Assembly (NCBI RefSeq): GCF_037042905.1
Contig: NC_087245.1
Span: forward strand, 372,001-436,000
Direction: 5' to 3'
DNA length: 64,000 nucleotides
From: Lytechinus pictus
Lineage: Eukaryota
The notes under the pieces were generated by a model. The model did no database searches, had not been told where the DNA came from, and saw only the letters and a program-made list of their open reading frames with translations. A program made the translations under genes and the position numbers. Numbering within the stretch: position 1 is the stretch's first letter; each line of letters opens with the position of its first letter. Below are positions 37,348 through 59,300 of the stretch, in pieces.

Positions 37348-38514
37348 AGCAACAACAATATTTTTTTTTAATATCAACAACAATGGCAACAATAATAAAT
37401 ATTTCACTGACTAGACCCAAAATGAAGCCAGAACACATCAGACCAAATTCACAAAGGTTGTTTTGAATCTGTGGTTTGAAACCATGTTTTATGTAGATTT
37501 CTTGCCTTGATTAAGCTTTATTCAGTGCAATTATCAAAGCGCGCTAAATAGATGATTGTTAATAAGGTTACTATATTTAATTTGCCCACTGTTTTGAATT
37601 AATGAATCCACTGCTTGTGTCAACTGATTTCCAAAATCAGTTGGCTCATTAATACATCAACGTAAGGAACAAGTGTCAATTTAAAGTTCTGTTACAAAAG
37701 CATTCATTCGTTTGTTAACGCTTTATCAATATACATGCTGAATTAAATGTGACTAAGGATGAAACCTGCATAAACCATATCACTGATTAAAAAACATTTT
37801 TGTGAGTTCAGGGCAGTAAACTGTGCAAAAGCTTAAAGACCAACATCTCATACAGAGTCATGGGGGAGGTGAGAAAAATCATGAATCTCTCATGAAATAA
37901 AATCAAAGGTAATCTTTCCCTTTATTTTCCAGAAATAAACTAATTACATAACAAAACAAAAACCTAAAGAGTAGAATATATTGTAGAAAGCTTGATAAAT
38001 GATCTCAATGAATGATGTCCAAAAACATATTCTCACTGACATTACAAATACTCTGAAAAGATTGGAAATTGTTGGGAGAAAGTAAGACTGTCAAATGATT
38101 TTATCTTAATATTCTGCATGAGACCGTACATAGTGATATAGACTTCAGTAGATGCAGACTACATTGATCTTCACAGAGAAAGGCTAGAAGAAAAGGAAAA
38201 GCTTTATAGCAAACCTCAATGTAATTGGTTCAAATAATTATTCTGAAGAAATCACTAGCATGTTTAAGTATCTGGTTCAAAGAAAAAATAAAGACCTTCA
38301 GACAACTGTCCAGTTTCACTGTGAAAATAATGTAGAAAAAAGGCTTGAATGATCGATTGACAATATCAAGTGATGATGCTACTTGAGATAAGTACTGAAA
38401 ACAAGAAAATACAACACTGGAGATGCTAACAAACTTAATTAAAAGTTGTGTGCTTAAAGCTTTCATGGCATGACTGAAGTCTGTGGACAAGATTAAAGTT
38501 ATCTACAAGGTGAT

Positions 38515-38677
38515 CTGGGGTCCGTAACACAAAGATTAGTGATAATAGTGATAAATTGATAGACCAATCAAGATCAATGTTTCATGTGCTTTTGGTTCAA
38601 AGTGCCAGCTATGAACCAATGAGAAGTGTTCTTTGATATTTGGTATTCATCGCCAAGCTTTGAGTTACGGGCCCCAG
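38515..38677. mobile_element. Short Harbinger-like MITE (related copy at ~24231-24373)
   Basis: TIR ctggggtccgtaacacaaag / ctttgagttacgggccccag. Confidence 0.75.
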
Positions 38678-38687
38678 AATGCATTAA

Positions 38688-39282
38688 AGGGGAATCCAGC
38701 CTTGGCCATAAAATGTTGTGTTGGGAAGGAGAAAAATAAATCAAACAGAATGGTGAAAGTTTGAAAGAAATCGGACAAGCAATAAGACAGTTATAGCTGC
38801 TTTAAAATTGAGATCACTAATAGTATGTAGATTTCAAATTGGCAACTGGGTAAGTAAATTATGACAAGGGGCAAGGACAACTTTCCCATAGTCCAAGTAC
38901 TTTATTATCAGGGATTTGTGGTTTTCTCCTAAGTACCCATTCCCCTGGGGCAGTAATCTAAATATAACCCAGGTAGTATATTGTTTTATGTCCTCATGAA
39001 AGAAAAATATAATTTGAAATAAAACTTTTGGGAAAAAGGACATTTTAGCCATAATATGTATTGGAGTACATAGAAGAGTAGTCCTTGCCTTACATCACTA
39101 TGACATCCCATATGCGGCCAATTTGAAGTCTCCATGGGTATAGTGATTACCAATATTTACAACTTTTAAAAATTCATAACTTTTTTGTTGTTTGTCCAAT
39201 ATTGTTCAAACTTTCACCTATCAACTTGTCTGATTTTTCTCTTTCTTATAAAAACAAGTTTTTATTTGGGTTGGATTCCCCT
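38688..39282. mobile_element. TTAA-target MITE (Kolobok-like)
   Basis: TTAA|aggggaatcca ... tggattcccct|TTAA. Confidence 0.85.
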
Positions 39283-39633
39283 TTAACCTATCAGGTAAGC
39301 ATTACATCTACACGTATGCTCATGGCAAGCCAGTCTGCACACAGTTTTGTCTACAGGCAATACATGAACTTCAACAAAAATATGATGATCATGCACAAAG
39401 GACAGGATACTCCATCCTATTAATTGAATTAGGTTGTTTCGGTGTGTTTAACAAGTATTAAGAATGATAAGAGCACAATTAACATTTGCAATGTAGTAAA
39501 TCAGAACAATATACATTATGACCAATTCAATCTACACAATGAATGAACCAATCACAGCTGCTAACTCCATAATGATGCAATGATTGACCAATCAGAGCTT
39601 TGATAGTTGATGACATCATATCAATTTGACCAA

Positions 39634-39714
39634 TCATTGAGAGCTTAGAGGACTACTGGCAGGTGAAAGTTCACTAACATCCTCAGCGGTATCATTTCTC
39701 TTTTCTTCATCCAC
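39634..39714 (-). CDS. SRA protein probable last exon (VDEEKRND...SPLSSQ*)
   Basis: ttcag acceptor, phase 0, continues the acidic/Ser tail; TGA at 39636-39634. Confidence 0.72.
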   Translation of the reverse strand: MDEEKRNDTAEDVSELSPASSPLSSQ

Positions 39715-42700
39715 CTGAAACATGTATTAAAAGAGATAAAGATCATATTACAGTTAATCGTGAAATTATATTTTCAATCTAATTGTGTGTTTCTTATTAT
39801 TAAAGAAAACTAAAACAGGTGGTACACAGTTTCAGAATACAACAAAAGGATATTGTCAATTCTTTGATGTAATGAGCTAGTTTTAAATTGAAAGACTATT
39901 TTCATTTATGTAATAACAGGGGTGTTAGGAAGAAAAAGGAAACTCAAGCACAATACATTAAAAAATCTATAGGAATACAAAAAAGCATCCCAATCATTGT
40001 CAAAGCATTCTACAGTGGTTTGACATTCCATGTCATGTGGCATGCCGATGTTAACCCTTCAGATCAAACTGGCTCCTGCATATTAAGCGAAATTCCAGAA
40101 TTCACTATTTTTGTCTCTTCTTTTGCAAATTTCAAATTACTTATGAACAAATGAAAAAAGTATATATGATTTTATAACTACCTAAGAAATTGACTAATTT
40201 TATCATTTTCTGACAATTTGCACTGTTTAGAGCTCACTCATTATGAAAGATATATCATATATTAAATTATGAACATATCTTGTATAATTTGTCGGTGAAT
40301 CCACGAAGTGGCACACACGACCGTTGATGCGAAATCACTTTTGAGATAAACGTGAATAAAGATTTTTACATTTTCGACTGCCCGTTGCTATATGATTGTG
40401 AAGTTTAACAGAATGAAGAATGTATACCCAGAGCCAGGTATCTACTCTTGTTTTCCATGTTAAAATTTTAACGAATGAACATCAAATCTTGAAATAGCAG
40501 TGATGCAAACACATGCATGACAAGTGTCATTTTGTGGAAAATATTACTTCAACGTGAGTAGAAACGCTACACACCTGCATGCAATTTTGTGGATTATTTT
40601 ACAAAGGATTTTGAGGCTAGTGTCAATTTTTCCCCTTAAATTATCTCATTAATTGGGTTCTAAATTTCGGTGAAATGATACACCATTCAGTGACGGCTTT
40701 AAGCATGTTCTTGCGAGAATCTGAGATATAATATTTCTCAAATTGTTTATTGTCTTCGCTAATACCCATTATGCTCACAAAATATACAAATGCATCATTA
40801 ACAACTGGACAAAGGAAGTTAGAACCTGACTTTATCTTGTGGGTCCGAGAAAATGTCATCAAATTAAAAATGTCTGTATTGTTGAAACCCCTGAAAGACA
40901 TTGTTGAAACACCTGTTGAATGCCCATTATATTGTCATTGGCTTGTCACATGGGGTTAACGCAAGCTGGTACTAAAGCATGTTCATATGCTTTATTATGG
41001 TGTGTATTATTTTATTAAAAATTGTGGTTGAAAGATTTGCCGAGAGAAAAATTGAATAATAATCATTTCAACTGCTATTAACATGTTTTTCACTTTCTTC
41101 AATTTCAGTTTCCCACATAATTCTAATACCATTTAATTCATTACCAGCTATATATTTTATTTTAATGTAGATTCTGACTTTTATTCATGCAGTATTTTAT
41201 AACAGTTGGTCTCATAATCATATCATTTGGGTCTACTTGCTTACATTAACCCTCTACTCCAACATCCTTGTGTCATTCTGTGCACACAATCATTTTCACA
41301 CTGTTTTCTCAATTTTTTAATTTCCACTTGTAACATCCACTTGGTCTCATCTGAGTAGACCCATTGAGAAAACTGAAATGATGAAGTGGATCTTAGACTA
41401 AATAGATGTGGATGAAATTAAAAAATAAACAAATTTATAAGATTCAATGTGGTAATAGACCAACTGATATGAGACCAACTGGTAGTGGATATACCTCTTT
41501 ATCTTGATCGCCCTCTGAATGTTCAGTGAACCCACTGTCTGATGAACATTCCTCGTTCTCTCTCTTATCATCATCTCTATCTACCTCCCATGGGGGTGGG
41601 GCTTGACCAGGACATCGTTTGAAAGCAAACTTATAAACACCAAACCCGGACAGACCAGTGGTGAACCAAAACTTCTCAACAGTGTACAGACCTGAAAGGT
41701 TTAGGAAAAGGGTCAAAGGTCATTGACTTTTTTTTGTTACATTTAGGCCATTTATTCCTGAAATATGCTATACTTGTAGTGAGGTAAATTCAATTTAAAA
41801 CAAAGAGTCACCACCACCACCAGGTATAGTGATGGCCAAATCAGAGGAAGAAATCAAGCAGATTTGAAGAAAAAAAAGTTGACTTTACATACACTATCAA
41901 AGTATCCGGAAATGCACTAATGAAAAGGTCACACAAGGAACGGTAGTACTGTATGCTATTCTAGGATTCCTATTCCACAATTGGTGAACATTAATGATGT
42001 GATACAGCAGTTTCACCCGTTATTCAATACTTGGACCCACTTTCAAAAGACTTGCAAGAATGGTAACTTTGCCATTGTACCATCGTAACATTTGTAAAGG
42101 GTGGGCGTGACAAATGAGTGCAGTATCTTTTATCCAGAAACGAACAGTTCTCCCCTCTTTGATTCTTGTATGTACATGTGTTAAAGACCCAAACCGGAGC
42201 TAAAAATGAAATTCACTAATGGGAAGTATATAACCTACATGTACATAGTACAAAAATGTAAGTTTTATGTATAATTCACAGCTTGACAGCTTTTGCTTAC
42301 AAAATGCTCAAATTAACGGGTTTTCAACAAAAAGCTTGATTGATCTATATAACGACCTGAATTACATAACGTCATACTGTTTCAGGAGGTTGGTGATTCC
42401 ATAGACTTGTACATAAAAAAAATGGATTATATTCATTTTATTCTAGATAATGAATTAATATATTTATTCAGTGCCCAAATGGATGAAAACCTACAACTTG
42501 TCACTAGTTGTTTTTTTTGTATGTGTGATTTCTTTATTTGGCTCTTATTAGGCCTAAAGTGCTATGTCAGGAAATGTTGTTATAAATAATCTGATTGTCG
42601 ATAGCTTTGGAATGCTGTTCCAAATTAGCGGGAAATACAATATGGAAAACAACTAGTCCAAAGCTTTTGATTTCTTCAATCAAAGCTTCGGGAAAATATG

Positions 42701-45700
42701 TATTTTTGATAACTCTTTGTGATAGTAGTATAGAAAAAAATGTGTAATCTCAACAGGAGAAAACTCACCTTTTTTTTTTTTAAGTACAAACCTATGAAAT
42801 CACCATGCTTCTAAACAAAGCATGACATCACAGTCTTGAAACCAGTAAAACACACAAGCCTTTTTTTTTTAAGTGCCATTTTTTGAGCTATTCTTAAGCA
42901 AAATACTCTGCTGATAAGTGGTGAAAATGCATAAAGCTTGAACTGCTGTGTTTAGTGGTTTATAAGCTTTCAATCTATATATGACTTGTCAATTTTATTT
43001 TTTGGGTCCAGTCTGGGTCTTTAAGACAACATACACCCCCAGACGATTACTGTTTAAAGACATTTTTCTCACCATCATAACGATAGCCATCCTCCGGTGC
43101 ATAGGGACTATCTGACTTGTAACCTCTGATTACACGAACAGGATTTCCTGTTTCAACATTCTTACTAAGAGCTAGATTACCTGAAAATAACATTCAATCA
43201 AAGATTAAGGAATTATAAACATAGTCAGAAAAGTACTTTCAGCCCACATATAAGTGGTGTAAATTTGAAACGGAGGGGGGGGGGCAAAATTACATTTTAT
43301 TTTTTTATTCTATTTTTTTTCTTCATTTTTTTAGCAGACAGTGGTTGACCGGACAGAGATACACATTTCCTTATATCAAATTTCAGAACTTTTATTAACG
43401 AAGTAGAACTATGGAGATAATATGGGAGTCAGACTTTTTCAAAGTCTGGTGACATGTAATGTTACAGTACACGACATATAAGTTAATCCCTCCTAAATCA
43501 TGACAGGGCCGAGCCACTAACAAAATTATGATTTATGACCATGGGTACACAAAATGATTTTGAACAATATTCAAACTGTTACCTACCTCTTTCTAAGGAC
43601 TGATCTTTAGACTGTGGAGCGGTTCTCAGGTTTTTAGGATTGTTCTTGGTGCCTCGAAGATCTCTACCACCTGATCAACAAGGGACAATAGAAGAACATG
43701 AAATACCTTTCACCTTATGTACAGTATTTTAATCTTCCAAGCATTTCTGAATAGATGCACCCTTTATAGTACTCCATGTTAATCCAGAGAGATTTGTTGA
43801 CAACAGTGTACTCAACAACCATCATAAATAAAAACAATTCTCTCAAGTGATTTAAACCATATTTTAACTTAAGTTCTACTGAATTAAGGCTGATGCACAC
43901 CTCACCACTGGTCCACAAATGGATACTGAATCTAAAACATATTTCACACTCAGATTCAAAAATCTAATTAGGAATTCAAAATGTTATTCTGATCAATCTA
44001 ATGGATTCTAGAAGCAATTACATCAGATCTCAGCCGTTGATTGCGCGATCGCCGCAAAAATTTGCACCCACGTAGAGCCAGATGTAAACTGCAAGACTGT
44101 ACATGTATAGTAAAATTTTAAAAAAATTAATCGCTTATAAATATTTTTATGAATTAATTATGCAAATAAGCGTATAAAATTTGCCCAAATTTATTTTTTG
44201 TTTTGTTTTTGCCTTTAACTTAATTTGTAAAGCTAGTACACTGTAGAATGCCAATTTTTGGTGAACATATACATTTTTACATTTCTAAGAAAAATTTACA
44301 AAAAAATTGCCGAAAAATAATCAATTTCCTATGTATCTTATATCCTATGTATTTCTTTGTTTTTTCAAACCTAAGTTTTTGTTGTTTTTTTCAATGAACT
44401 TTGTCGGGGACCCTTTTGCAATCATAAATTACATAAAATAAATCCATATACCAACAAAAGTAAAAATAATCATACATTTCTGATTTTTGGTTGAAAAACA
44501 CAATTTGCATTAATTTTGTACACGTAATCATGTTTTTGAGCAATTTTGGGACCGACATGCACTTAATACAAAATATCGCGTAATTTCAGAACCACGTACC
44601 TGGGCATTGCAAAATTTGGTCTCATAAGATGCGCAAGACTTGAAAATAAAAAGGTCAGTGAGCGGCGCGGTCAGAAAAAATTTCGCGACGGCTTAGTGGC
44701 GAAATTTATCCGTTTAATAAGGGTTAAATCATTTGATGCTGACTTGAACTAATTATAACATAGTTGGTATTTGCAGTCTGATGAAAACAACAAAATCACT
44801 ATTTTAAAAATGCACATTAGCTATTTTTTTTGTTAACTTACTCTTTTAATATTAATTTTGACTCATGTTATATTGATTTTACTTTTTTCACGGTGTAAAA
44901 ATTGAAATTAACTTAATAATTAATGCCAATTTAAAGCGCAAAAGAAAATTGATTTTAACCAGCTGTGTATCTGAATGAAAGGAAAGAACATACCCTGTCC
45001 AGTGAATGTAAAGCATTCACCCATGTCTAAATCATCTTCATAACCACCAGACAATGCTACTGAGTAACAACCCTCATCGTTACCATGGATACCAGATACA
45101 GTAGGTCGATGTACGCCATCTCTAGAGCACTCCATTCTCATCTCCCATGATGTTCCAATTTCAATACCTACAAGATAACCACCAAAATCAATAAGCAAAA
45201 GATAAAATATTAACAGCAAAATTATCTTTTGACAGATTTCTTACCCCCTCCTTTCACTTTCCCTCATAATGTATCTCCCATTTATACAAAATATTCTTGT
45301 AATAGGTTTGGTATCTGGGTGTAAAGAGAAATAAGATTAACTTTCACATTTAAAATAAATCTAATAACATCTATTTCTCTGTTTTGAAAATTTGGTAATC
45401 TAAAAAATATTCCCTTTTTAGAATGGACAGGTAAAAAAGGGGTGGGGCAGAGCTTGAATTAAGAATTCAAATGGAGAAGGAATTTTTTAGGGTCCTTCAA
45501 GAGAGAGGCAGGCAGGGGGGGGGGGTATCCAAGGTCATTAATAAAGGTCATCAATAGTTAAATGTACTTTCTAATGGGACACATGCACTCGATTACCATA
45601 GGGCATCAAGGCCACAGGAAAAATGGGTACTTAATTTGGCCTGAAGTCTAAAGATATTTGGAAGGGCATCAACGCCATTTCTGAGGGTATCACATGGCCT

Positions 45701-48496
45701 TGGGTGGCCATGGATTAATACGAGTTCTGGTGGGGTGGAATATAGGGTGAATTAATCAGTCAACATTTTTCACAACCATTCTGGCATGGGAAAGTGTTTG
45801 ACCATGCTACTTGCTGACTTTCTAGTCTTGTGATCTTTTGAGATCAAATTTGTACGTGCATGTCAGACCAAAAATTGATCAAAAACATAGTTCTGTGTAC
45901 AAAGACAATGCAAATGGAGTTTTCTCACCTTATTCAAAAATTTATTATTTTTACTTTCTTAGTCAAAAATCAACTAATTTTAGCATAAATATGACCAGCC
46001 ACCCCAAAATGGAATTTTAGACTTTCATTGACTTTGTAAAAGCACATTTAAGGTTGAGAATGATTAATTTGTCAAAATTGATCACCCATAAACCTCACAA
46101 GTGCATGTAATTGGTTGAATGCAAAAGAAATTCAGTGAGAGCTTCATACAATTAAAGGAGAAAACAAGGTTTGAAGTACTGGGTTCACTCAAGCATGATA
46201 TGTGCACTGTGCAATCTCAGTGAATTTTCCAAGCAGTCCGCAGAAATATGGTGTCTATAAAGAAATGCTTGTAACATTTGCTTTTTTCAACTTTACAACT
46301 TCAAATTTTTGAAAGTTTGAAGAAAAATTGCTCTTTCAGGATACCCTGGTAATTTATAATTATATCGTAGTTTAAGGGAAGACGATAGCTAGATAGATAA
46401 GACAATTCAGGTTTTGAGATTATTCTATATATTGCAAATAGAGAAACAAATCAATTTAGAAAACGTTGAGTGCAACAATTCAGTGACCAAAGCCATATAC
46501 CTCAACGCATAGAAACATAAAATGGAGAAGAGCTAGTAATATTCGATCTCCACTATTTTTTTGCTATTTCTAGTGTGTAATTTTGCAGGCATCATTAAAA
46601 CAACTTTCTTGTTTTTCGTAACTTTATAATAATTATATAAATTAATATTCCATATGTTTCTATAGTGTTCCTAAAGCTTTGTCTTTGAAGAATCCTGTTC
46701 TCATATTACTGAGGATGAATTATTGTTTCTTAAAAGACACACCTGGCTTTTTTTTTATTCTTAAGAAGGAAAAATGTGGTTTATTTACCGGAAAATATTT
46801 TGGAAGATTTAATAATACAGTCTAGTAAATTATATTACACTCTACCATTATACAGCCAAGATAGCCAAGATGGGGGGGGGGGGGGTGTTGGATTCAACCC
46901 TTCCCCCACCATGGGACAACCAAAAGTCCCAGCCTGGTTACACAACTCGTAATTACACTACTCTGCTTTAGAAAGATAATTGCCAGTTGTGGTAACGATC
47001 CCAAAATGACTTTTTACATAATCTAATATAATGACCACCCAAGTGTCTGTTTGTATGAATAAAAAATATGTGCCAAAGGATTCTGGAAGAAATTGTGTAA
47101 TTGCTGAGAAATAAGCAAAATAAGCGCGGATTTGGTCACTTCCGTCGGGTCTTTATTCCAGCAATAATAATACACTGTCCCACATGTGCCTATCTGTGTT
47201 GGCGATCTTCAGTGTGATCGTTTTTCAGCTTAGATTTTATGAGTTCACAAAGTTCAGTTTATGTAACTGTACCAGATCTAGATCCACGATGATATAGTAA
47301 TACTTCACCTTGGTTTTACAGACTTTCTCACGAAATTAGTGTTTTACTGCAACTATACTTTCATTTAGCTTTAATACCTGGTATAGCTCCAAAGGTGTTT
47401 TCTCTGGGAGTTCTTTTGACTGGTTTGTAGTCTACATCTTGGTGATCAAGGCTGTTATCCAAATATTCTAAATCAACATCACTTCCTTCCACTGGTTGCT
47501 AGATATTAGGATATAACATGTTAACATCTTTTAAAGAATAATTAAATACAGGCTTGTTTGCTATAATATAAACTAACAAATACACAAGGATGTTCAATTC
47601 AATTCAACTCAATTCATTTATTTGACATCCTTTAAAACATACAAACATATGTACAAGTATACAACAAAGTAGTAAAAGAATTCAAATCACAGTAAAAGGT
47701 CAAGTTAAAGGTCAAGTCCACCCCAGAAGAATGTTGATTTGAATCAATATAGAAAAATCAAACAATGCTGAAAATTTCATCAAAATCGGATTTAAAAGTT
47801 GACATTTTAAATTTTGCTTATTTTTCACAAGAGTTATCCACAACATGCAAATGAGAGGGTTGATGATGTCCCTCACTATTTTTTTTAATGTTTTAATTAT
47901 CAAATATTTACAGACTTGACAATAATGACCAACATGACTGAACCATAATGCTTAAACCATGGTAATTCCACTTGTTCATAGAGGATCATGGAGGAATAAA
48001 TAAATTTGTCACATGATAATGAAAAAATTCAAAATACTATTATTTCATATTATTTTCCCATAATAAAATACAAAAGAAATAGTGAATGGGTGATGTCATC
48101 AGTTCCCTCATTTCATACTGACCAGGATGACCATAATTATAAAGTTAATTAGAAAATTTATAATGGCATATCTTTCTTATTTTACATCCAATTTCGATGA
48201 AATTTTGTTGGATTTTTCTCTTTTTACTCAAATCAACTTTTTATTTGGGGGGTGGACTTGTCCTTTTTAAACATCAGTTGATGGAATACAGAGATAGTAA
48301 TAGGCCTTGTTTGAATATATAAGCTTTTCTAACTTACCCTTCCCCGCAACCTGCGAGACTGCCTTCTGCCAAAGTCTGAATATTCACTGCCTCCATCGGG
48401 TCCAGCATCCGCTGATCGTGGTGTCTTGGGTGTTCTTGGCGATGCAGTCGATGGACGCTTCCTCTTAATCCCGCTTGTTTTCTTTGGAGCGATAAA
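39634..48496 (-). CDS. SRA/YDG domain protein (UHRF1-like SRA only, no RING); 5'-partial, 7 exons, ~307 aa
   Basis: Exons 48496-48338, 47498-47378, 45167-44994, 43670-43587, 43180-43073, 41691-41495 and 39714-39634 have AG/GT boundaries and splice in frame. They give FGAIPGIEIG..W..R.ECSRDGVHRP..GIHG..SVALSGGYEDD..FTFTGQGGRDL..DQ..NLAL..PVRVIRG..YAP..GYRYDGLY, the SRA/YDG signature. Confidence 0.92.
41495..41691 (-). CDS. SRA protein exon (GLYTVEKFW...GQAPPPW + acidic tail)
   Basis: ttcag acceptor, gtatat donor; end of the SRA domain. Confidence 0.92.
42185..43020. mobile_element. TTAA-target MITE (Kolobok-like)
   Basis: TTAA|agacccaaaccgga ... tccagtctgggtct|TTAA. Confidence 0.8.
43073..43180 (-). 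CDS. SRA protein exon (NLALSKNVETGNPVRVIRG...GYRYD)
   Basis: ttcag acceptor, gtgag donor; YDG motif spans the junction. Confidence 0.95.
43587..43670 (-). CDS. SRA protein exon (GGRDLRGTKNNPKNLRTAPQSKDQSLER)
   Basis: cag acceptor, gtaggt donor; finger loop. Confidence 0.93.
44028..44727 (+). mobile_element. piggyBac-like non-autonomous element fragment
   Basis: Ends in aaggg|TTAA; homologous to 33440-34040. Confidence 0.55.
44994..45167 (-). CDS. SRA protein exon (GIEIGTSW...GVHRPTVSGIHG...SGGYEDD...FTFTGQG)
   Basis: tag acceptor, gtatgt donor; base-binding pocket motif. Confidence 0.95.
47378..47498 (-). CDS. SRA protein exon (QPVEGSD...RENTFGAIP)
   Basis: tag acceptor, gtatta donor; supplies the N-terminal FGxIPG of the SRA domain. 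Confidence 0.88.
47709..48264. mobile_element. TTAA-target MITE (Kolobok-like)
   Basis: TTAA|aggtcaagtccacccc ... ggggtggacttgtcct|tttt(aa). Confidence 0.8.
48338..48496 (-). CDS. SRA protein exon: basic/NLS-like region (KRKRP...RRQSRRLRGR)
   Basis: cag acceptor, gtaagt donor; 53 open codons, GC-richer than flanks. Confidence 0.8.
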
Positions 48497-48576
48497 CTGT
48501 CCATGGGAATGAAGAGATGTACATAATTTATCTTGTGTATTTTATTTTGTTTAAATGTACAGAGAAAAACAATTAA

Positions 48577-48824
48577 GGGTCATGTGGTCTAGCTTCTAGA
48601 GCATTGGACTCATGATTGAAAGGTTGTGAGTTCAAATCCCAGCTCTGCCATTATTTTATCTCCAGTTTAACCCAAAAGGCCAGAGAGTAATTCTGTTGTC
48701 TATAAAGGTCAGCCACTATATGACTGATTAACCTTCTACATACATGAACGTAAGATACTGGCTAGGCGAAGCAGCGGAAAGCTGCTTTGCAGAGTTCCTT
48801 CAGGAGTTACCCCAACAGAAACAG
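48577..48824 (+). mobile_element. tRNA-derived SINE
   Basis: tRNA-like head with B-box gagttcaaatcc; body shared with 12176-12433. Confidence 0.75.
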
Positions 48825-49051
48825 ATCACAAAAACAAGTGAAACCTCAGGCAGTCTCGCCTGCATTATATGCAATCCAATATGTAGTGCTGACTTTAATA
48901 AAAGCAATTATCAAAATAAAATCACATTATAAAATCCTAAGCTCATTGACCTCAAATAACCTCTGACCATGATCATATGACTTGAAACTCATAAAAATTA
49001 TTCAGTGATAGACCTACTTGTTAACTACTAGCATACATGTAGGGTCTAGAC

Positions 49052-50058
49052 CAGGGGTTCTCAAACTACGGCCCGCGGAGCTTCTCTATCCGGCCCGCGA
49101 GACTGTGCTGGGTTCTTTTTAATCACTTAAGTCACAATATGAAACATAGCTCAATATGATTACAATGTGTATCCATGTAGACCTAATCGTAATAAAAGTA
49201 ATGGCAGTCAAATTAATTTGACTTTTAAACAAAGTTTAGTGGTGTCTTTTCTGTCTGTTCGATCTTCTTTCTGATTAGATGACCAGCGCTGTTCTCACCA
49301 TGTTTGGATCTACATGAGGTGTGAAAGTGCATTTTCCACAATGAACATTTTAAAGAACTCATACCGAAGTACCTTGACAGGGGCCGAGGAACGGTTTTCT
49401 AAGTGGGGGGGGGGGGGCTGGCCATGCAAAAAATCACAATCATATGGTCATTTTTATGTTTTTGTTAATGGTTTTGGGAAAAAGTGGGGGGGCTAAAGCC
49501 CCCCCCCCCCCCCCCCCCCCCGCTTCTGCTGCTTGACCAGTGAACATTTACACCAGCAGTGCCTTCGTCTAGCAATTACACCTTTTGTGCCAAGGTTCAA
49601 GCAACTTGTTGCTGACAGACTGTCACTTTTCCCATATTGAAAGTGACTAGGAGACTGACATCCTTGTTAGAGTCTACAACAGACATGCTCTATTATTCAT
49701 TCTACTGCAAAAATATTGATACTTCAAGACATTATCTGTTTCCCCAATCCCAGTTATGTATAGGTATAATCTAGATTACTTTTAACAAAGTACTATAATT
49801 TTGTTATTAATATTGACTCTCGCTGTATTTTGAAATCTTTTCTAATTTTGCCTGCGTTCCATATAACTGTTATAAATTTGTTGGAATAAAAGCTCCCAAA
49901 ATAAGGGACAGATTGCACAAGAGAGCATCTAGGACCCCGACGGCAAGGGTCTTTGCGCTTCGCGCACATTTTTGTCTAAGTATCCAATTCACCCTGGCCC
50001 TTTCAGGTTTACTTGGAGTCTCATCTGGCCCTTCAAATAAAACGTTTGAGAACCCCTA
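49052..50058 (+). mobile_element. hAT (Buster/Charlie-type) deletion derivative with transposase C-terminal remnant
   Basis: TIR caggggttctcaaac / gtttgagaaccccta; 8-bp TSD gtctagac/ttcttgac; frameshifted MFGST.RCESAFSTMN..RSTLT..EHL..CLRLA..CHFSH at ~49279-49640. Confidence 0.85.
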
Positions 50059-50635
50059 TTCTTGACCCTAGTCTAGATCCATTTTTTTTATGATTGAAAT
50101 AGACTAGGCCTAGATCTGGATTCAATTTCAAAATTACTAGTATAACATTTCAAAAACTTAACCTCAGTAGATTTAAGGTTGATTTTCATGGCAAACGTTT
50201 TTTTAAAAAAAATTCTAGTAAAACTGGGGCAAGCCGAAGAGGCCGAGGGCCAACGAGAGAGGCCAACTTTTCTCATAGTGTATTTTCTTTCATGAGGATG
50301 TTTGTCTACATAAGTGGAAAAGTTTCCACTTAGCATATTCCCCAATGAAAACTGAAATAATTATGAAGTCATAAGTTGCAGAAGATAACGGACATTAATT
50401 TGATGAAGCTTTGGTAAATCGGGACAACATGATTATCAATACTATCTAGAGTACCGGTAGTAGAGCATTATCTCATTCTCACTTACCCATTATTTATAAA
50501 TATGGCCTTTGAATCCCTTTTCAGCCGTTTATTTGTAAAATTGGAAACTTTAGTTTTAAACATTTTCTTATTGTTATTACTTCTCGACTGTTTTTTTTTT
50601 CAATTGGAATGTATGGTAGTGGATCGTATATTATC

Positions 50636-53600
50636 CAAGGCTTGACATTAGCAGTGGCCTGGGGCCACCAGAAATTCACCTCGGGCAACCATTATTGGAA
50701 AAAATGTTAAGTTTTGGTGGCCCAAATCGGGCAACCAATAATTTTCAAAGTAGCGCAATTTTTCTCCCGATTTTGCATTTATCAACTTTCTACAGTTCAA
50801 ATTGCAAGCCAATACGTCATGCGCCCTTTCCTTAATCTACACACAAAGATTGCATAGTCATGGAGGAAAGGAACATAACAAAGCAGTGGAGAATTATCCA
50901 GCCGGCCACGCCGGCTGTCTGGCGTGAGCTTTGCATGCATGAAACCACTGGAGCTAGCTGTGCGCTAGCAGACTATTCAGACTCAGGGAGCTGTGATTCG
51001 AAATGTTGCTGCTAAGATATCTTCCACAGAACTTTGAAAATCTACATCAAAGTCGCATTTTACACCAATGAAATGCCCTTCTCCAGTCCATATTACTAAA
51101 ATCTGGTGTAACCTGATTATTTGCAAGCATTAAAAAGAGGAATTATGACCTCTCTTTTGACTCAAAAGACTGATTTCCAAATGCATTAATACAAAACACA
51201 TAGGTGAGTACATCACAGTCCCACCCACATGTGGTCAATTCCAGCGTAACGGACATGACGTTCAGACAATTTTTTGTAATTCAAAGGTTTATACAGTAGA
51301 ATAAGCAGTCTTTTGATAATTGTTACTGAGCTTATCAGACACATTTGAGTATCAGTTACATACACATGAAATTTCAAATCGTTTCGTTGAACAGTTGCGG
51401 AGAAATTGCACTCTTTGTGAGCGTAACGGACATGACACTAAATGGACGAAGCATTTTTACCTCCTATTGCTTATCAAAATTCCTGTGAATTCTTAGATTG
51501 CATGCACCTGACGTTGGTGTTAATTTAACCTTAAGATCATGCTTTATCTATAAAATGGTGTTTAACAACAGTTTTGCAGTGCATTCTGTATTCATAGCTC
51601 AAAATGTAGCGTAACGGACATGACACACAAAACGTAACGGACATGACAGTTTCATCCACTTTTTGTAAGCGAATATAATTATTTTATTACAAGATATGGT
51701 ACAAGTCTAATTGTTTACATGTTAAGGCTAGAGGTTAGAGACACACATCATAACTGGTAATCTGTAATATCTCCTATTATTTTGCGATTTGAGAGGGGGG
51801 CTTTTCGTGCAATATTTATAAAACAAAAAAATATTTTGAAAAATTTCTTTTACACCAGTTAACAACAGTTAATGAGTATTTTCCAGTTACTACCATCCGC
51901 TACACCTAATTAAAGGAGAAAAAGTTGATAGTAAAGATTATTTTTTTATCATGGCTTACTATTTGATAATATACACTAGCGTAACGGACATGACACCCTT
52001 ACGGAGTGAACTTCATCAGCACTTCTTAGTTTCAAAATGAAAGAAATATGAATAATGAATGTAATTATGTAACAGCAAAGTACCTTTACTAACATTCTTA
52101 AGAAAAATATGTAGATATTATTGACAGGTATCATTAATTTAATAGCTATAGCCTAGTACATGATAATTTTATATAGAATACAATGTTCATCGTACCACTA
52201 CGGCACACTGAGAAGACCAAATCTCATTTTTTTGTGAGAAGAAAACAAAATGTACCAGACCTGTATAAATCCAAGATGAACTTTATGAAACTTATTTTAT
52301 GATAAAGAATATGAACTAGTATTAATGTCAGTTTTAAGATTAAAAAAAAATGATATTAAAAAGTATTTTAAAATTTAATAGCAGTACCTGGAAACCAGTC
52401 TCATTATCGATTATGTATGAGTTGAAAGGTACACAGAATGTTTGTAAATCGCTTCTTAGATTTTTTTTTTCATTCAAAATAAATATCATCCTGAGTATAA
52501 TCATCCTTTCATCAAATCTTGGATGTTCTAAATCTTACGATCTTGCTTGCTGACAAATGTGGCTGTATCTAATTTTGTTGCATTGTCTGCGCTGCTTGTG
52601 TACAAATGAAGATACATCATTCAAATCGTGATTATGGCTGACCAAAATACTATGATGACATAATTTAATATCGATCGCGCCACATTCCTTCCACAGCCCC
52701 TTTGCTTTGTGATATTGCAAAGAAGTGCCACTGTAGATTCATGGATTCATAGAGCTACATCATGTAACACAGATATCTGAATACAAACTTGTTTTTAAAT
52801 GTGAGCCCGTGCCATCACTGAAGAAGTAGAGGTTGGTGAAAGTCAGATACTTTGAAGCAATATCATCAGTGATCTCATGAATTCACAAGTTGGAGTTTTA
52901 TCATGCTCCAAACTGTCAGTGCAAGCACCTTTATTGTATTGTTCAAACACAAATGATGCAGATTGTGATCTGAGTATGTTGCCAGATCTAGCTGCATCTT
53001 ATCCTAATATTATGTGGCATACCGTTAATTCTAAGAAAAATACACCAAAACAAGAGCTGAACTTTCATCATTCACCAACTTCTAAAAATAGCTTGAATGA
53101 CATGCAGATTCTAGGAGTTATTACATCCAGCTATCCTCAAGCAACTGAGACTGGCCTCAGTCTGTGACAGTGAGCCTAATATTTTGTTTTTGTGAATGCT
53201 GCCTTTTGTCATATATAAGGCGTCATGTCCGTTACGCGAATTGTCATGTCCGTTACGCCATTTTTATGAAAATGAGAAGTGGTAAGGGAAAATGATTGCT
53301 ACACATGGTAGGGGGTTTAATTCTAACATAGAATCTGAATCTGCAGTACCTTTAGACAAATTTCCTGTAAGCTGTGAAAACTTTAAGTGAAAAACGTAAC
53401 GGACATGACACTGATAATGGTAAAGAAATCACACAAATCTGAAGACAGATTTCTCTAAAATTGATGAATGGCATAAAATTTAACGATGATTTTCTGTTGA
53501 TTTGAACATTAATTAACTATTCAAAAGTTAAAAGAGACCTCTGGGACCTTGTTTGCTTTTAGTAGAGACAGGAAAGATGAATTGCTTAAATATAGCCACA

Positions 53601-54908
53601 TTTTTTACATTTTGCAATTTACTATTCTATTTTTTTGATGATGGAAAAAACTACAAAATTTTTTCAATATTGCGATTTTTCTATTGGAAATTGAGACTTT
53701 ATAGATTACTTTTTAAGAAAATTTGACTGCTTAAGTGAAATCTGAAACTTCATTTTTTTCTCTAAAGTGAACATTTTCCATGGAATTGCCCATGTGCATT
53801 TGTATGTTTGTTGATACTTGGTTTCTTTTGAAGCTGTGTCTTTTCTAGCCAAAATAAACAGTTTCTTTCTTGTTTATAAATGACTTCTTAAACCACTCTT
53901 GAGGAAGTAAATACTTTGGGAAGGCATTTCAATGATATGAAATGTTAATTTTTCTAGCATTTTGGCAAATATGGGGTAGGACTATCCTCACACTGTTTTT
54001 TCCAGATATAACTTTTGCTGTTTTCTTATTTTTTTCTTTCATTTTTTTTATAGTGGTTAAACCATTTATACCCCTTCCCATTGAATATGCCTGATTAAAG
54101 ATTATGTTTCTACTGAAAAATAATAATTATAATAATTTTCCCCATTTTTTATTAATTTTGTTTTATTCATTTTTCTTTCATTTTCTTTTTTTCCCTAAAT
54201 TTTTTTCTTTCCTTTTTTCCTGTTCTTTGTTTTTTCTTTCTTTATTTTCTTTCTTTTGTTTTATTTCACTTATTTATTTTATCAGTTTTGTTTTCTTTTT
54301 CAATATACTATTCTAAAACTTACTTTTGATTGTTTCCCCTTTTATGCATTGTTCTTATTTTGCAGCATATTTTTCTGTGATTTTCTCCTGCTATAATATG
54401 CTGGAAAAGAGAAAATAAACTGGATTTGGGGCCTGGCCTGTCGGTTTTAGGATTCAAAAAGGAAGAAAGGAAAAAACATTGTTTTGTACATCTATCTGAG
54501 TTTGCTATGCACTATTTATTTACTTTACCATTGTGAGTGTGTGTGTCTATAGTATACAGAGATTTTTTTTAAAGTCCACACAACCTGGGAACAATACAAT
54601 TCTTTTATTCTCTTTCAATCATTTGATATTTACAATGATAGAACAATTTGTATATTACCACAAATCAATTAGCAAAGTAAAATAACAGCAAACAAGATGT
54701 ACATACAAGATGTACAAAGTGAAAGTAACTTAGTGGTAGTGGCTGCAGAATTAATATTTCAAAAGTTTGTTTTATTCATTTTCAATTAATGTTTTTCTTT
54801 ATATTTTTCGGGCCACCAAACTTTAATATCGGGCCATCAACAAAAATTATTTGAAGGTTTTGGTGGCCCGAACGGGCCACCACCAAAAAAAGTAAATGTG
54901 GAGCCTTG
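50636..54908. mobile_element. P-like non-autonomous element (7-bp TSD) carrying a nested Sola-like element
   Basis: TIR caaggcttgacatt / aatgtggagccttg; TSD tattatc on both sides; subterminal gggccacc/ggtggccc motifs. Confidence 0.75.
51233..53791 (-). mobile_element. Sola2-like decayed DNA transposon
   Basis: TIR ggtcaattcca / tggaattgccc; 4-bp TSD atgt; repeated cgtaacggacatgac; minus-strand remnant YFFSDGTGSH(F)KNK...WHFFAISQSKGAVEG at ~52850-52680. Confidence 0.7.
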
Positions 54909-55678
54909 TATTATCGAACACTTTTCATGAATTCAATCATATCAATCACTACATTCTTATAAAAATTCACCAAACTTTCACCATAAACACACTAATACTG
55001 ACAAAATATACTGACAAAATATAAATATACCAAGAGGGGAACGACTGATTATTCTTTCCTATCCACTTTCAATTTATATATACATATCATTTTTCCCCTC
55101 AGCTCTTTTGAATAGTTACATTATAGTTTCTTCCTCTACTTTCCTCCCATATCTCATACAAGCTCAGCTCCAATTTTTCCTCCTTTATTCAGGCGATATA
55201 ATAATTATTATATATATATATATATATATTTTTTTTTCTCCACTCACCTCTTTTAGATTTATCACATTTGCTTATTTACATGTATACTATGGTTTCTTCA
55301 TAATACACCCCCTCTCTTCTATATTTGCTTTTACCTTTTTAGGCAATTTGCTTCCTCTTTTTCACATATACAGGTTTTTTTTTTTTTTCCTACTGCATAG
55401 TCCTATGTTTTTTTCCCGTCACACCTAGCGGATTACAATATCAGTTACACCATATGTGTATTTATATTTTTTCATATACATTTCTTTTTTGGATATATTT
55501 ATATACATATCACTTATAGATACATATTTACACTTACCTTCTTCTCTTAGTTTGTTTAATGCTTTATCGTATATACTTATATGTCTTTTGCACATTATCA
55601 GTTGTTCCCCATTCTTTTCCTTTTTTCCCCCACTCTTATGCACCAGTTTATTATGCCTTTCTTTGTAACCTGTTTGAC

Positions 55679-56520
55679 CATGGACCTATTACGAATGGAC
55701 ATTCAACGAATCCCCTCCTTTGGGACAAAGACCGTAACCGCTAATCCTTTTATAAACAGAGCGCTGGCAGCTGACGCCCATCAAGCCGGTCGTAAAACAC
55801 GCTCTCACTGATGGACAGCGGAAATCAATTGTACGCTGCTCCTACCCGTTGTGATGTCGTTCGTTCACTTTATCAAAAGCAACGCACAGCAGCGAACGTT
55901 AGCGCTATGAAAATGATAGCAGAAACAAGAAAACAGGCGTGCATAAACATATTTTTTACGTACATCGCAAACAACCGCACATGAAATGCATTGACATCAC
56001 CTTGCAGATCCGTATATCTACGGCAAAAAAGCAGTTGAAATTAGACGGAGAAATGTGTGGAAAAACGTTAAAAATGCATCTTTTTCGGACAGTATTGATG
56101 TCGATAGTAGCGCTTACCTTCGGTCAGAAGTTGATTTTCATTTGGGCATAAAATTCCACAGGATTGATGAAATTTAATGGGATTTTTTTTGATGGTCAGA
56201 CGACAATCGCACATTACAGACAGCCTAAAATAATGTACTGAAAAACCGGATATGAATCGCGCATTGCATTCTAGGTAATGTAGGGACCTTCGTTATTGGC
56301 AATCGGGGCTAAAACATGACCGTCTTTGGTCGAAAGAGGGCCAGTGATCGACCGGTGACGATCATTGGCCGAAAGGAGCTTGTGTAAACAATCGCCCCTG
56401 GCGGTCGTCGTAAAAACCGCGTAAAGAGAAAGTTAAGGGTTAGACAGCGATTTTGACAGCTGGAAACGGGTGGTGGTCATAAAGAGCTCTCGTTGAATGT
56501 CCATTCGTAATAGGTCCATG
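55679..56520. mobile_element. P-like MITE
   Basis: ~31-bp perfect TIR catggacctattacgaatggacattcaacga; 7-bp TSD gtttgac. Confidence 0.88.
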
Positions 56521-56539
56521 GTTTGACCCACCTCTCACT

Positions 56540-57454
56540 AGGGCCGTCTGCACCATCCCGAGTTTTCAAATTAGCGCGCTATTTCTGATCCGGCAAATTA
56601 TCCCGATCTGAAAAATCTCGAGATAGTTTGCAGTGGAGACGCAATTATCGCGCTAGTTCGTAGGATTAATCTCGAGATTGCAATCCCAAGTCAACTCGGG
56701 TTTATTTGCAAAATAGCGCGCTATTTTACGAATTATCCCGCTAATTCGTAGGTGCAGACGCACTCGAGATTGGACTCGGGGTAATTTATTCATGACGTCA
56801 GTCCATAATGCAATTCGCATTCCACTTCCGCCTTGGTCAAAACATAAACACGTGCGAAAGACAACTTTATACATGCGAATAGATACTATCGCGAATAGCG
56901 TTCATCAATTGCCTAATCAGCAACGATGGTGTCCCACCAGTGAATGGATTTTGGGAGAGACCAGACCGAAGGGGGAGGCGCTCATCGACGATGGTCATAT
57001 TCAATAACAACACCGACAGCAGTGTCGTCTTATTCCTTCGCAAAATGTGAGCAAATAGCATTTCTTTCCTCCTTCTCTCCCTCTCTCTCTCTCTCTCTCT
57101 CTGTCGTTGCCTTCTACTCCGCCATCATATTTAACGAAGAATACATCACTTCTTCACTCGCTGAGCTGAGAGGATTGTTGCATAACACCGGTCGAATTCG
57201 GCGAAAGTGCTAGTGAAAGGAGTACTGCTTGCATATATATCGCGGGAAGTTATTCAAAAGCGCGGGCCGTTGAAACTCCAAGATCCGAAAGTGCGCATGC
57301 TCGGAATATCGGGCTTGTTGCCTCGCTCGAGCAGGAATCGCTCTTCTTGCGATGGTGGAGACGGGGTTTCTTGAATCTCGAGATTAATCGTGAAATGGGC
57401 CGATCGGGCTAAAATCTCGAGATTGAGCAAACTCGGGATGGTGCAGCACCGCCT
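56540..57454. mobile_element. Harbinger-like MITE, copy 1
   Basis: TIR agggccgtctgcaccatcccgagttt / aaactcgggatggtgcagcaccgcct; 3-bp TSD act. Confidence 0.85.
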
Positions 57455-57567
57455 ACTAATTCTCTAGTTATTCATCCCTCTATCACTGTTTTGTTCCAGA
57501 TCCTGTTTGATGTTGCCTGCCTCATTATCTTAATCCCTCTTGGCCTTACTTACACTAACTTCCCTAT

Positions 57568-58467
57568 AGGGCCGTCTGCACCATCCCGAGTTTTCAAATA
57601 AGCGCGCTATTTCTGATCCGGCAAATTATCCCGATCTGAAAAATTTCGAGATAGTTTGCAGTGGAGACGCAATTATCGCGCTAGTTCGTAGGATTAATCT
57701 CGAGATTGCAATCCCAAGTCAACTCGGGTTCATTTGCAAAATAGCGCGCTATTTTACGAATTATCCCGCTAATTCGTAGGTGCAGACGCACTCGAGATTG
57801 GACTCAAGGTAATTTATTCATGACGTCAGTCCATAATGCTATTCGCGTTCCACTTCCGCCTTGGTCAAAACATAAACAGGTGCGAAAGTCAACTTTATAC
57901 ATGCGAATAGATATTATCGCGAATAGCGTTCATCAATTGCCCAACCAGCAACGATGGTGTCCCACCAGTGAATGGATTTTGGGAGAGACCAGACCGAAGG
58001 GGGAGGCGCTCATTATCGACGATGGTCATAGTCAATAACAACACTGACAGCAGTGTCGTCTTATTCCTTCGCAAAATGTGAGCAAATAGCATATCTCTCC
58101 TCCCTCTCTCTCTCTCTGTCGTTGCCTCCTTCTCCACCATCATATTTAACGAAGAATACATCACTTCTTCACTCGCTGAGCTGAGAGGATTGTTGCATAA
58201 CACCGGTCGAATTCGGCGAAAGTGCTAGTGAAAGGAGTATATTGCTTGCATATCGCGGGAAGTTATTCAAAAGCGCGGGCCGTTGAAACTCCAAGATCCG
58301 AAAGTGCGCATGCTCGGAATATCGGGCTTGTTGCCTCGCTCGAGCAGGAATCGCTCTTCTTGCGATGGTGCAGACGGGGTTTCTTGAATCTCGAGATTAA
58401 TCGCGAAGTGGGCCGATTGGGCTAAAATCTCGAGATTGAGCAAACTCGGGATGGTGCAGCACCGCCT
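57568..58467. mobile_element. Harbinger-like MITE, copy 2
   Basis: Near-identical to 56540-57454 in the same orientation; flanks tat/ttt. Confidence 0.85.
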
Positions 58468-58605
58468 TTTGTGTCTGCCTACTCCTTTTCTTTCATCCCC
58501 TTCACTAACCTGATTGGTCTTCTCTACTCACTAATGCCCCTTTTGTCTCCTTGTTTCTAGTGTGGTCTATATTATGGTTGTTCCACTTTATATGTTTGTC
58601 ATTTT

Positions 58606-58644
58606 GCCTCCGACGAAGATTCTGCTAGGATCGAAAGCTTAGGC
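58606..58644 (+). ncRNA. Minimal type I hammerhead-ribozyme-like motif (Penelope-type), U4>C variant
   Basis: gcct-CCGACGA-a-gattct/gct/aggatc-GAAA-gctt-aggc: stem I GCCU/AGGC, 6-bp stem II, palindromic AAGCUU stem III. Confidence 0.55.
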
Positions 58645-58800
58645 CCCTTTTTGACCTTCTAATTTACTCCATTGGCTCTCTTTTATTAGATAAGCAGTTT
58701 TCAGCAGCTTCTTTTTGCCAAAATATAAATATGTAAAAAATTTGCCGAAATCATTTTTGTTTTTAACTTTAAATGTGGAAATCTGACCAAAGTTACACTC

Positions 58801-58929
58801 TGTCATAATCCTGATATTTATGTGAAGATTGATAAAACTAAGCGTGCATCTTGTGTCCTTCTTGCCTTGACAATATCCAATGATATTCAGATTAATCCAG
58901 GCCCTATTAAATATCCATGTGGTCTGTAG
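58801..58929 (+). pseudogene. Non-LTR retrotransposon 5' remnant with 2A-like peptide
   Basis: In frame: ...VLLALTISNDIQINPGPIKYPCGL*. Confidence 0.55.
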
Positions 58930-59300
58930 CCTATAATCTAGGCGGAGGCTGCAGTTATTTGTCTTTGCTGTTATAATGCTGAACGTAAGCGATATGTCTG
59001 ATCTGGCGAAGAATACGCATTTTGGCTGCGTTAGTAGCCACCGCCTATACAGTCCCGTCTTGCTTTGGATGTTGTTTTTCATTATCGACTTTGAAATGAC
59101 ACCAGTTTTTTTATTGCAATAAACATTATTTATAATCAATATTTAAATTTTATTATTTAATAAAAAACATTTTTAATCTATGAATTTTTTTCCAAAACGG
59201 CACTTCGTAATACAGTTCATCGAAGCTACGTACGTGTACATCATATCGAAGCGGGTTCAAGGGTCAACCTAATCAATAGGTCAAACCTTTTCCATAGGTT

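Follow-up and report, generated by a model that had tools for sequence, protein, structure and literature searches.

A stand-alone SRA protein of the sea urchin Lytechinus pictus bears a conserved N-terminal helix predicted to dock on the remodeller HELLS

A stretch of 64,000 nucleotides from Lytechinus pictus (NCBI RefSeq assembly GCF_037042905.1, contig NC_087245.1, positions 372,001 to 436,000; hereafter the window) contains all but the first exon of an expressed, single-copy gene of eight exons that encodes a protein of 338 amino acids (aa) with one SRA domain. The most likely reading is that this stand-alone SRA gene, which lies outside UHRF1, SUVH, ORTH and CDCA7, works like CDCA7. Structure prediction suggests that the protein probably binds the chromatin remodeller HELLS through an N-terminal helix encoded by the exon beyond the window. 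We further lean, with some reserve, towards a CDCA7-like HELLS adaptor in which the SRA domain replaces the zinc finger and would combine hemimethyl-CpG targeting with HELLS activation. The new part of the finding is the exon 1 helix and its link to HELLS, whereas the family itself is partly in print, as described in PMC9476566 and 10.1101/149385.

The initial annotation had joined seven minus-strand exons, and this part of it stands: via GT-AG introns they give a single 307-codon open frame that closes with a stop. Expression evidence came from two raw RNA runs with the same species label and two contig sets. All six introns are joined in the raw reads of runs X19 and X20 (50-154 reads per joint and run, on a single strand), and the same six in the assembled contigs of runs X1 and X15. 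However, the model was not complete. It opens at a splice acceptor on the 48496 side, with no start codon there, and relatives carry ~30 more N-terminal residues. Searching the 64-kb window by tblastn with the N-termini of seven relatives gave nothing credible, and exon 1 was found ~620 bp beyond the window end (G000:C1:436714-436622). Its ATG is preceded, 24 nt away, by an in-frame stop, its GT donor is in phase 0, and 73 and 90 reads of the two runs pass from 48497 into its sequence with an agreement of 0.97. The 31 codons of exon 1 and the 307-codon frame therefore make a full protein of 338 aa, which is identical to the L. variegatus orthologue P0033 at 324 aligned positions.

The public Lytechinus pictus model P0002 (316 aa), to which exon 4 is 100% identical, starts instead at window position 49686, with a start exon (49657-49686) inside intron 1. 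The splice joints considered here are those listed, 43 weaker joints lying beyond them, and none of the listed joints supports this start. The sense depth in its bin is 0.72 and 0.18 in the two runs, compared to 36.5 and 54.9 in the exon 2 bin. We thus rejected 49686 as the main start; since no listed joint supports it, the P0002 annotation is likely wrong or describes a minor isoform. Its start exon drops the conserved helix, and the public model for this species consequently lacks the key helix exon.

In the AlphaFold2 single-chain model of P0033, residues 7-25 form a helix with a predicted local distance difference test (pLDDT) of 83-93. A helix profile built from 41 family members matches 113 of the 120 relatives listed below, making the helix the most conserved element outside the SRA domain. 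The same profile also matches 52 of 94 more distant representatives with a PKNLR loop, compared to 12 of 56 without that loop, and members from chytrids, glomeromycetes, basidiomycetes and ascomycetes have retained the helix. In a 60-row alignment, Asn19 and Leu23 are invariant, and Tyr8, Glu9, Arg12, Asn15 and Gly27 are conserved in at least 90% of the rows. The initial annotation had described the protein as SRA-only, which holds for its Pfam domains but not for its function, as exon 1 adds this conserved helix predicted to dock on HELLS; its suggestion of an adaptor fits such a docking helix.

The sea-urchin HELLS gene lies on contig C16. Complex prediction of L. variegatus HELLS (residues 78-545) with P0033 (residues 1-40) gave interaction prediction scores from aligned errors (ipSAE) of 0.75/0.74/0.75, compared to 0.00 for the best of three controls. 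The runs agree in at least 60% of contacts, and the partner pLDDT is at least 63. For calibration, the ipSAE mark was reached by 51 of 78 solved microbial pairs and 2 of 108 mismatched ones; for eukaryotic pairs the counts were 39 of 65 solved and 2 of 126 unrelated. In the complex model, residues 6, 8-9, 11-12, 15-16, 19-20, 22-23 and 26-28 of the helix region contact residues 126-140 in the CC2 helix of HELLS, in addition to residues 321-325, 348, 351-354, 459 and 486-487 of ATPase lobe 1. This CC2-plus-SNF2_N surface is the one described for CDCA7 (PMC11343034). The closest predicted contacts are made by Arg12, Asn15, Ile16 and Asn19 with HELLS residues 321-325, including the invariant Asn323-Gly324.

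Both faces of the predicted interface are conserved. On the HELLS side, Asn323 and Gly324 are each found in 60/60 sequences, Tyr133 in 58/60 and Leu126 in 57/60, whereas on the helix side the conserved positions 8, 9, 12, 15, 19, 23 and 27 coincide with predicted contacts. Judged by motif spacing, HELLS Ile132, Phe136 and Lys140 would correspond to human Ile77, Phe81 and Lys85, residues that are reported to form the coiled-coil dimer of inhibited HELLS (PMC12885070). Their position in this inhibitory dimer face suggests how helix binding could activate HELLS. No similar complex was found in the PDB copy searched, a search that short peptide chains could escape; its HELLS entries are HELLS or DDM1 chains, and the CDCA7 chains found there are zinc-finger pieces of 108-144 aa. 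Within the scope of this search, the model would have had no solved complex of HELLS with the helix to recall.

The helix resembles segments of other proteins reported as HELLS partners. Sea-urchin CDCA7 is a separate gene on contig C8, and in a six-frame profile scan of 52 loci the best non-self match was a CDCA7 exon (E 3e-4; next best 0.21) lying ~3.5-4.5 kb upstream of its zinc finger. On the helix profile the score is 24.5 bits for the spliced CDCA7 helix, 32.4 for a PRDM9-type KRAB-like exon and 23.3 for a WDR76-like exon. By comparison, none of 2400 shuffled N-termini reached 18 bits (maximum 8.7), and the maximum in 120 proteins from the HELLS search was -1.2. Outside its own locus, exon 1 matched four places in a genome-wide search, namely three KRAB-like exons and one WD40 gene. 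At two of the three KRAB-like loci the exon leads into PR/SET and C2H2-array exons, which indicates several PRDM9-type paralogues in the sea urchin; an 'ancestral KRAB' is described in PMC8835667. Pfam holds no family for the helix, nor for the CDCA7, KRAB-like and WDR76-like exons, and a PDB sequence search with the helix gave chance matches only.

Some details of these loci were recorded. The CDCA7 helix is split by an intron (L051 6338-6490 and 7206-7340, on G000:C8). The three KRAB-like exons are near-identical and lie on G000:C6 at 8.19 Mb (L055), 15.07 Mb (L056/L060) and 20.17 Mb (L057/L062). The WD40 gene with a similar N-terminal helix, probably WDR76/Cmr1, lies at G000:C6 12.40 Mb (L054; L058 681-860), and Pfam and PDB searches of one WDR76-like exon gave no match.

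All three kinds of protein have been connected to HELLS in published work. The CDCA7 helix is reported to be needed for HELLS binding (PMC11343034), PRDM9(1-511) binds the N-terminal and central parts of HELLS in two-hybrid assays (PMC7599071), and HELLS homologues were co-purified with WDR76 from Neurospora and from human cells (PMC4714748, 10.1101/650028). Among the three, the accounts available to us show the helix as a HELLS contact for CDCA7 only, and among the literature matches listed the term 'HELLS-binding helix' likewise concerns CDCA7. In the literature covered, mainly as titles and abstract openings with subscription journals sparsely represented, no HELLS-binding helix is connected with any SRA-only protein, with the KRAB domain of PRDM9 or with the N-terminus of WDR76. 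The same holds for the SRA-only family in the accessible text of 10.64898/2026.09.07.749791.

The features of the gene, all on the minus strand, are as follows, in window coordinates unless stated otherwise.

Exon 1, G000:C1:436714-436622 (L019 2622-2714; equal to window 64622-64714, outside the window), minus strand: aa 1-31, carrying the conserved helix aa 7-25; ATG, GT donor and spliced reads.
Intron 1, 48497..64000 and beyond the window end, minus strand: ~16.1 kb, repeat-rich; genomic sequence and spliced reads.
Exon 2, 48338..48496, minus strand: aa 32-84, basic Ser/Pro-rich linker with a net charge of +11; frame and RNA joints.
Exon 3, 47378..47498, minus strand: acidic linker and start of the SRA domain; frame and RNA joints.
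Exon 4, 44994..45167, minus strand: SRA thumb valine and residues of the 5-methylcytosine (5mC) pocket (GGYEDD); frame, alignment and RNA joints.
Exon 5, 43587..43670, minus strand: SRA finger loop, in which a six-residue insert specific to the family precedes N-L-R-T; frame, alignment and RNA joints.
Exon 6, 43073..43180, minus strand: SRA domain up to the RYDG motif; frame and RNA joints.
Exon 7, 41495..41691, minus strand: last part of the SRA domain, then the first part of the acidic tail; frame and RNA joints.
Exon 8, coding part, 39634..39714, minus strand: acidic tail and stop codon; frame and RNA joints.
3' untranslated region (UTR), 37500..39633, minus strand: at least this length; RNA coverage.

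The frame thus runs from a basic Ser/Pro-rich region through the SRA domain to an acidic tail (aa 279-338, net charge -15), the order that the initial annotation had read from the seven exons. The exon 2 linker contains an R-x-S-x-R motif, whose R, S and R are conserved in 114, 114 and 117 of 120 relatives, respectively, and it is likely a nuclear-localisation signal. The last exon has no listed joint to anything downstream of it, and coverage of the sense strand continues as 3' UTR to at least window position 37500. At ~38684-39282 the 3' UTR contains a 599-bp element, flanked by TTAA and bounded by inverted termini, which is skipped by 20 and 53 RNA reads and one contig, with non-GT-AG ends; on account of these termini and ends it is probably a polymorphic miniature transposon insertion rather than an intron. 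Intron 1 contains two near-identical tandem copies of a ~0.9-kb repeat (window ~56560-57460 and 57570-58470), in addition to a dispersed repeat (window ~51200-53400) that is also present near the 5' end of the UHRF1 locus (L016 ~1700-3850) and is probably a common transposon.

Pfam search of the protein revealed SAD_SRA (PF02182) as the sole domain, with an E value of 1.7e-52 and 177.6 bits against a curated cut-off of 30.7, covering profile positions 2-148. The same domain stands alone in 13 of 14 co-scanned relatives, the exception being a fungal fusion of 1102 aa. The AlphaFold2 model of P0033 shows a confident SRA fold with a floppy finger loop and a predicted template modelling score (pTM) of 0.66. 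It is closest to the SRA domains of UHRF1 and UHRF2, with a Foldseek E value of 3e-18, a Z score of 23.0 and a root mean square deviation of 2.2 Å over 152 residues. The pocket is well conserved among the 120 relatives (P0033 numbering): the thumb residue Val148 is found in 119/120, Asp170 in 95/120 (Asn in 24), Tyr167 in 119/120, and Tyr/Phe179 and Thr180 in 120/120 each. We take Tyr167 and Tyr/Phe179 to be the pocket aromatics and Thr180 a further pocket residue. In the finger, Asn196 and Arg198 are each present in 120/120, and the pattern of the finger-loop insert is matched in 117/120. Val148, Asp170 and Arg198 match mouse Val451 (thumb), Asp474 (pocket) and Arg496 (finger), which are named as SRA elements in PMC9476566. 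This finger register, with the invariant Asn two places before the Arg and N-L-R-T aligned to N-K-R-T, is our probable assignment from the alignment, in which HMMER placed the gap elsewhere.

When P0033 was searched against proteins of 183-585 aa, 838 matches at E 1e-30 or better were obtained. The best 120 of the 838 are listed here, all with SRA as the sole precomputed domain, although the length limit hides fused forms. Animals among them comprise a sponge, cnidarians, molluscs, annelids, a brachiopod, a nemertean, a bryozoan, crustaceans, sea spiders, spiders and thrips, together with deuterostomes, namely hemichordates, all five echinoderm classes and amphioxus; the fungi are chytrids and a glomeromycete. 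Further members were found in Kwoniella, Cutaneotrichosporon, Peziza, Geoglossum, Entomophthora, Tuber and Macrostomum. No vertebrate appears among the best 120 of the 838 matches, and the mammalian SRA proteins named in a review are UHRF1 and UHRF2 alone (PMC4914596). In the ESM Atlas, the whole protein matched SRA-only clusters from cnidarians, basidiomycetes and arthropods, whereas residues 1-90 gave no usable match once SRA clusters were excluded. This is likely an old animal-plus-fungal family, conserved from sponge to amphioxus. The initial annotation had seen an animal-specific family, which the fungal members grouping with the sea-urchin protein contradict.

The family probably includes Cryptococcus Uhf1 and the octopus protein named 'YDG', so its existence is not new; the earlier view of a separate, poorly characterised family was right about the separate gene, but members had already been noticed (octopus YDG-OCTBM, PMC9476566; Cryptococcus Uhrf1, 10.1101/149385). 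Fungal SRA proteins without a RING domain have been counted as UHRF1 homologues (10.1101/2023.01.30.526367), and many database names for family members read UHRF1 or UHRF1-like. Surveys of presence and absence may accordingly be counting family members as UHRF1. Several long proteins (P0028, P0068, P0081, P0082, P0050 and P0117) have the SRA unit before or after unrelated sequence; P0028 combines DUF7923 with a CCCH finger, and in P0081 and P0082 the helix begins at an internal Met. These long proteins may be merged gene models or real fusions. P0178 of Periplaneta americana (719 aa) is long-branched among the animal members and has neither a detectable helix nor the usual loop.

The gene is almost certainly a separate functional gene. 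Genome-wide statements here rest on candidate-limited searches, in which a scan for the SRA family gave seven matches among eight candidates at two loci only, the present one and one on C11 near 11.78 Mb. The latter is a separate UHRF1 with TTD, PHD and SRA exons and a weak ubiquitin-like match; its RING-like Cys/His exons are visible but split, and were not scored by Pfam. A scan of the same genome for DNA methylases gave three weak matches at two loci. As the initial annotation had proposed, the sea-urchin protein stands alone, is not UHRF1 and carries no E3 ligase domain: no listed joint leads to UBL, TTD, PHD or RING exons, its 5' splice leads to the 31-codon ATG exon, and inspection of the full protein found no Cys/His cluster outside the SRA domain. 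In addition, Pfam found no SET, PHD or RING joined to the SRA domain over the full protein, which is thus not of the SUVH or ORTH/VIM type. The predicted separate UHRF1 locus is likewise present.

It is very improbable that the gene is a shortened copy of UHRF1, or a part of it annotated wrongly, that originated within the animals and has little function of its own, even though the database names just mentioned would suit such an origin. The gene has its own spliced and expressed transcript beside the UHRF1 locus, and none of its four SRA-region introns lies at a UHRF1 position (phases 1,1,1,1 here versus 0,0,2,0 in UHRF1). The finger loop has a six-residue insert and N-L-R-T, compared to N-K-R-T without insert in UHRF1. 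In a tree built without the finger-loop columns, one side of a branch with support 97/96 consists of 44 animal and fungal rows; sea-urchin UHRF1 and eight rows with NKRT-type or ORTH-type loops are on the other side, and the RING-bearing P0031 falls outside the family branch. This tree has one animal UHRF1 only, with 14 unnamed rows left out and the bootstrap not fully settled. A tree holding the animal members and sea-urchin UHRF1 together was not rejected by an approximately unbiased (AU) test (p 0.284, log-likelihood 12.7 lower), which leaves room for an origin within animals; given this p value and the single animal UHRF1 row, the deep history of the family is likely but not proven. Together with the conservation from sponge to amphioxus, these data largely refute the fragment form of this explanation.

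Under the preferred reading, the protein would be a nuclear adaptor built as helix, basic linker, SRA domain and acidic tail. The SRA domain would flip 5-methylcytosine into its pocket and most likely prefer hemimethylated CpG in linker or naked DNA. The N-terminal helix would bind the CC2 helix and ATPase lobe 1 of HELLS/LSH, CDCA7's reported surface, and thereby occupy the face that holds HELLS in an inhibited oligomer. The remodeller, which is reported to be inactive alone and to require CDCA7, would in this way be recruited and switched on at methylated DNA, in parallel with CDCA7 in the sea urchin and possibly in its place where CDCA7 was lost.

Several points weigh against this reading. 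The complex score of 0.75 is the model's own confidence, with calibration pairs that excluded peptides and disordered chains, alignments left unused, and controls that contained neither another SNF2 ATPase nor a decoy amphipathic helix. Family members served to build the helix profile, and the choice of the three partner helices preceded their scoring. The four non-self places of the genome-wide search scored only E 0.6-1.3 with CDCA7 absent, probably because its intron-split helix escaped the exon-wise search. We take the WD40 gene to be WDR76 on weak matches (Pfam WD40 E 6.8e-5; best PDB match DDB2 E 0.033). The PRDM9-HELLS contact was not mapped to KRAB, as far as PMC7599071 describes it, and a WDR76 deletion study reports other N-terminal binders, with HELLS a less stable partner. 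HELLS is reported as not needed for methylation in Neurospora (10.1101/650028 and PMC4714748, the sources for Neurospora and human WDR76). In thrips and spiders, two of the groups without CDCA7, the helix has diverged and its profile match is weak or absent (P0269, 12.2 bits; P0046 and P0272, none), and the family also coexists with CDCA7 in the sea urchin and many other species. Concerning the SRA domain, the octopus member was judged to lack the CpG-recognition residues (PMC9476566), a verdict that may stem from gap placement. Moreover, the UHRF1 SRA is unable to bind hemimethylated CpG in the nucleosome core, unlike the CDCA7 finger, and an SRA adaptor and CDCA7 therefore need not be interchangeable.

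The protein might bind HELLS through the helix and yet act as a competitor or brake, by occupying the site of CDCA7, PRDM9 and WDR76 or by shielding hemimethylated CpG from UHRF1, or it might protect the genome by guiding HELLS to damaged bases or to other modified ones. A single predicted HELLS site implies competition among helix-bearing proteins, the Neurospora WDR76-HELLS pair is reported to act in damage survival rather than methylation, SRA binding is blocked in the nucleosome core, and the six-residue finger insert seen in 117/120 relatives could alter specificity. Nevertheless, we consider such a role unlikely. The finger Asn and Arg are invariant, and the likely Cryptococcus relative, an SRA-only Uhrf1 that binds hemimethylated DNA selectively, promotes 5mC: its loss in a clr4 background lowers symmetric 5mC sites from 31% to 11% of wild type, although its loss alone leaves 5mC almost unchanged, as reported in 10.1101/149385, the latter being a further point against the preferred reading. 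Likewise improbable, in our view, is a plain hemimethyl-CpG reader that assists DNMT1 (in animals) or Dnmt5 (in fungi) in maintenance methylation, either directly or through another partner. The helix would then be a common kind of amphipathic segment that folds back onto the SRA domain of the same protein or has a binding partner different from HELLS. Such a role would be in line with the tie of the Cryptococcus protein to Dnmt5, HELLS being unmentioned in the accessible text of 10.1101/149385, with the confidence of the helix when modelled without a partner (pLDDT 83-93, pTM 0.66), and with genome-wide helix matches that are not significant on their own. It fits less well with the complex score of 0.75 versus 0.00 and with residues that are conserved in helix and HELLS alike where CDCA7 is reported to bind, with the retention of the helix in fungi and animals despite their different methyltransferases, and with every non-self genome match belonging to or resembling a reported HELLS partner family. 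A HELLS-docking adaptor remains our preferred reading.

Species that methylate DNA but lack CDCA7 offer a lead, not a test, for this adaptor. PMC10538959 (file 1) lists at least 10 invertebrates with DNMT1, UHRF1 and HELLS but without CDCA7, and C. neoformans with Dnmt5 and HELLS but no CDCA7. Among the listed matches, the family occurs in three of these 10, Macrostomum lignano, Frankliniella occidentalis and Amphibalanus amphitrite, in addition to the genus of one more (Daphnia) and the order or family of two more (spiders and thrips); it was not seen for Timema, Pediculus, Microplitis and Tribolium among the best 120 of the 838 matches. We tentatively suggest, at somewhat less than even confidence, that HELLS/LSH has one general docking site for a short, old helix that became linked to different readers: the zinc finger of CDCA7, the zinc-finger array of PRDM9 (where it is helix 2 of the ancestral KRAB), the propeller of WDR76 and the SRA domain. 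On this view the SRA version would be a second methyl-DNA adaptor older than the animal/fungal split. It would be missing from vertebrates, as far as the matches listed show, and would replace CDCA7 in Cryptococcus, flatworms, water fleas, barnacles and thrips. If true, a second adaptor would explain HELLS targeting in methylating species without CDCA7, and the tested fungal 'Uhrf1' could be reinterpreted as a HELLS adaptor. The shared helix would also provide a concrete, mutable contact for PRDM9-HELLS and WDR76-HELLS, as well as a candidate original function for the ancestral KRAB domain.

Compared to known proteins, the sea-urchin protein resembles octopus YDG-OCTBM (Ocbimv22020196m; PMC9476566), a short invertebrate SRA-like protein beside a true UHRF1. 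The O. bimaculoides protein P0200 (358 aa) is a family member with the helix and is presumably the product of the same gene. In the accessible text of PMC9476566, YDG-OCTBM receives one sentence, without family, tree or function, Fig. S5 being outside the comparison, and in 12 of the 22 supplementary files Ocbimv22020196m appears only as a transcript id in a list. Cryptococcus neoformans Uhrf1 (Uhf1, CNAG_00677; 10.1101/149385) is likewise an SRA protein without Tudor or RING, and the Tremellomycete members found, from its neighbour genus Kwoniella and from Cutaneotrichosporon, have the same finger insert and N-terminal helix and group with the sea-urchin protein, pointing to orthology with CNAG_00677, whose own sequence was outside the comparison. 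By contrast, Uhf1 is described as a UHRF1 orthologue aiding Dnmt5, with no helix or HELLS link mentioned in the accessible part of that report, and animals, unlike Cryptococcus, also retain a full UHRF1.

UHRF1 and UHRF2 share the SRA fold and the pocket residues, whereas the sea-urchin protein lacks UBL, TTD, PHD and RING, has different introns and falls on a separate branch. The ancestral KRAB helix 2 of PRDM9 and the N-terminal helix of WDR76/Cmr1 score on the helix profile and belong to reported HELLS partners; these helices, likened by sequence only, are joined to PR/SET and zinc fingers or to WD40 repeats. CDCA7 (HLBH and zf-4CXXC_R1/HMZF) differs in its reader, as the sea-urchin protein has no zf-4CXXC_R1 and would instead read DNA with a base-flipping SRA domain. 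Nevertheless, the two share a similar N-terminal helix with the same predicted HELLS surface, and in both the helix is followed by a basic linker and a methyl-CpG reader, putative in the sea-urchin protein, on the C-terminal side.

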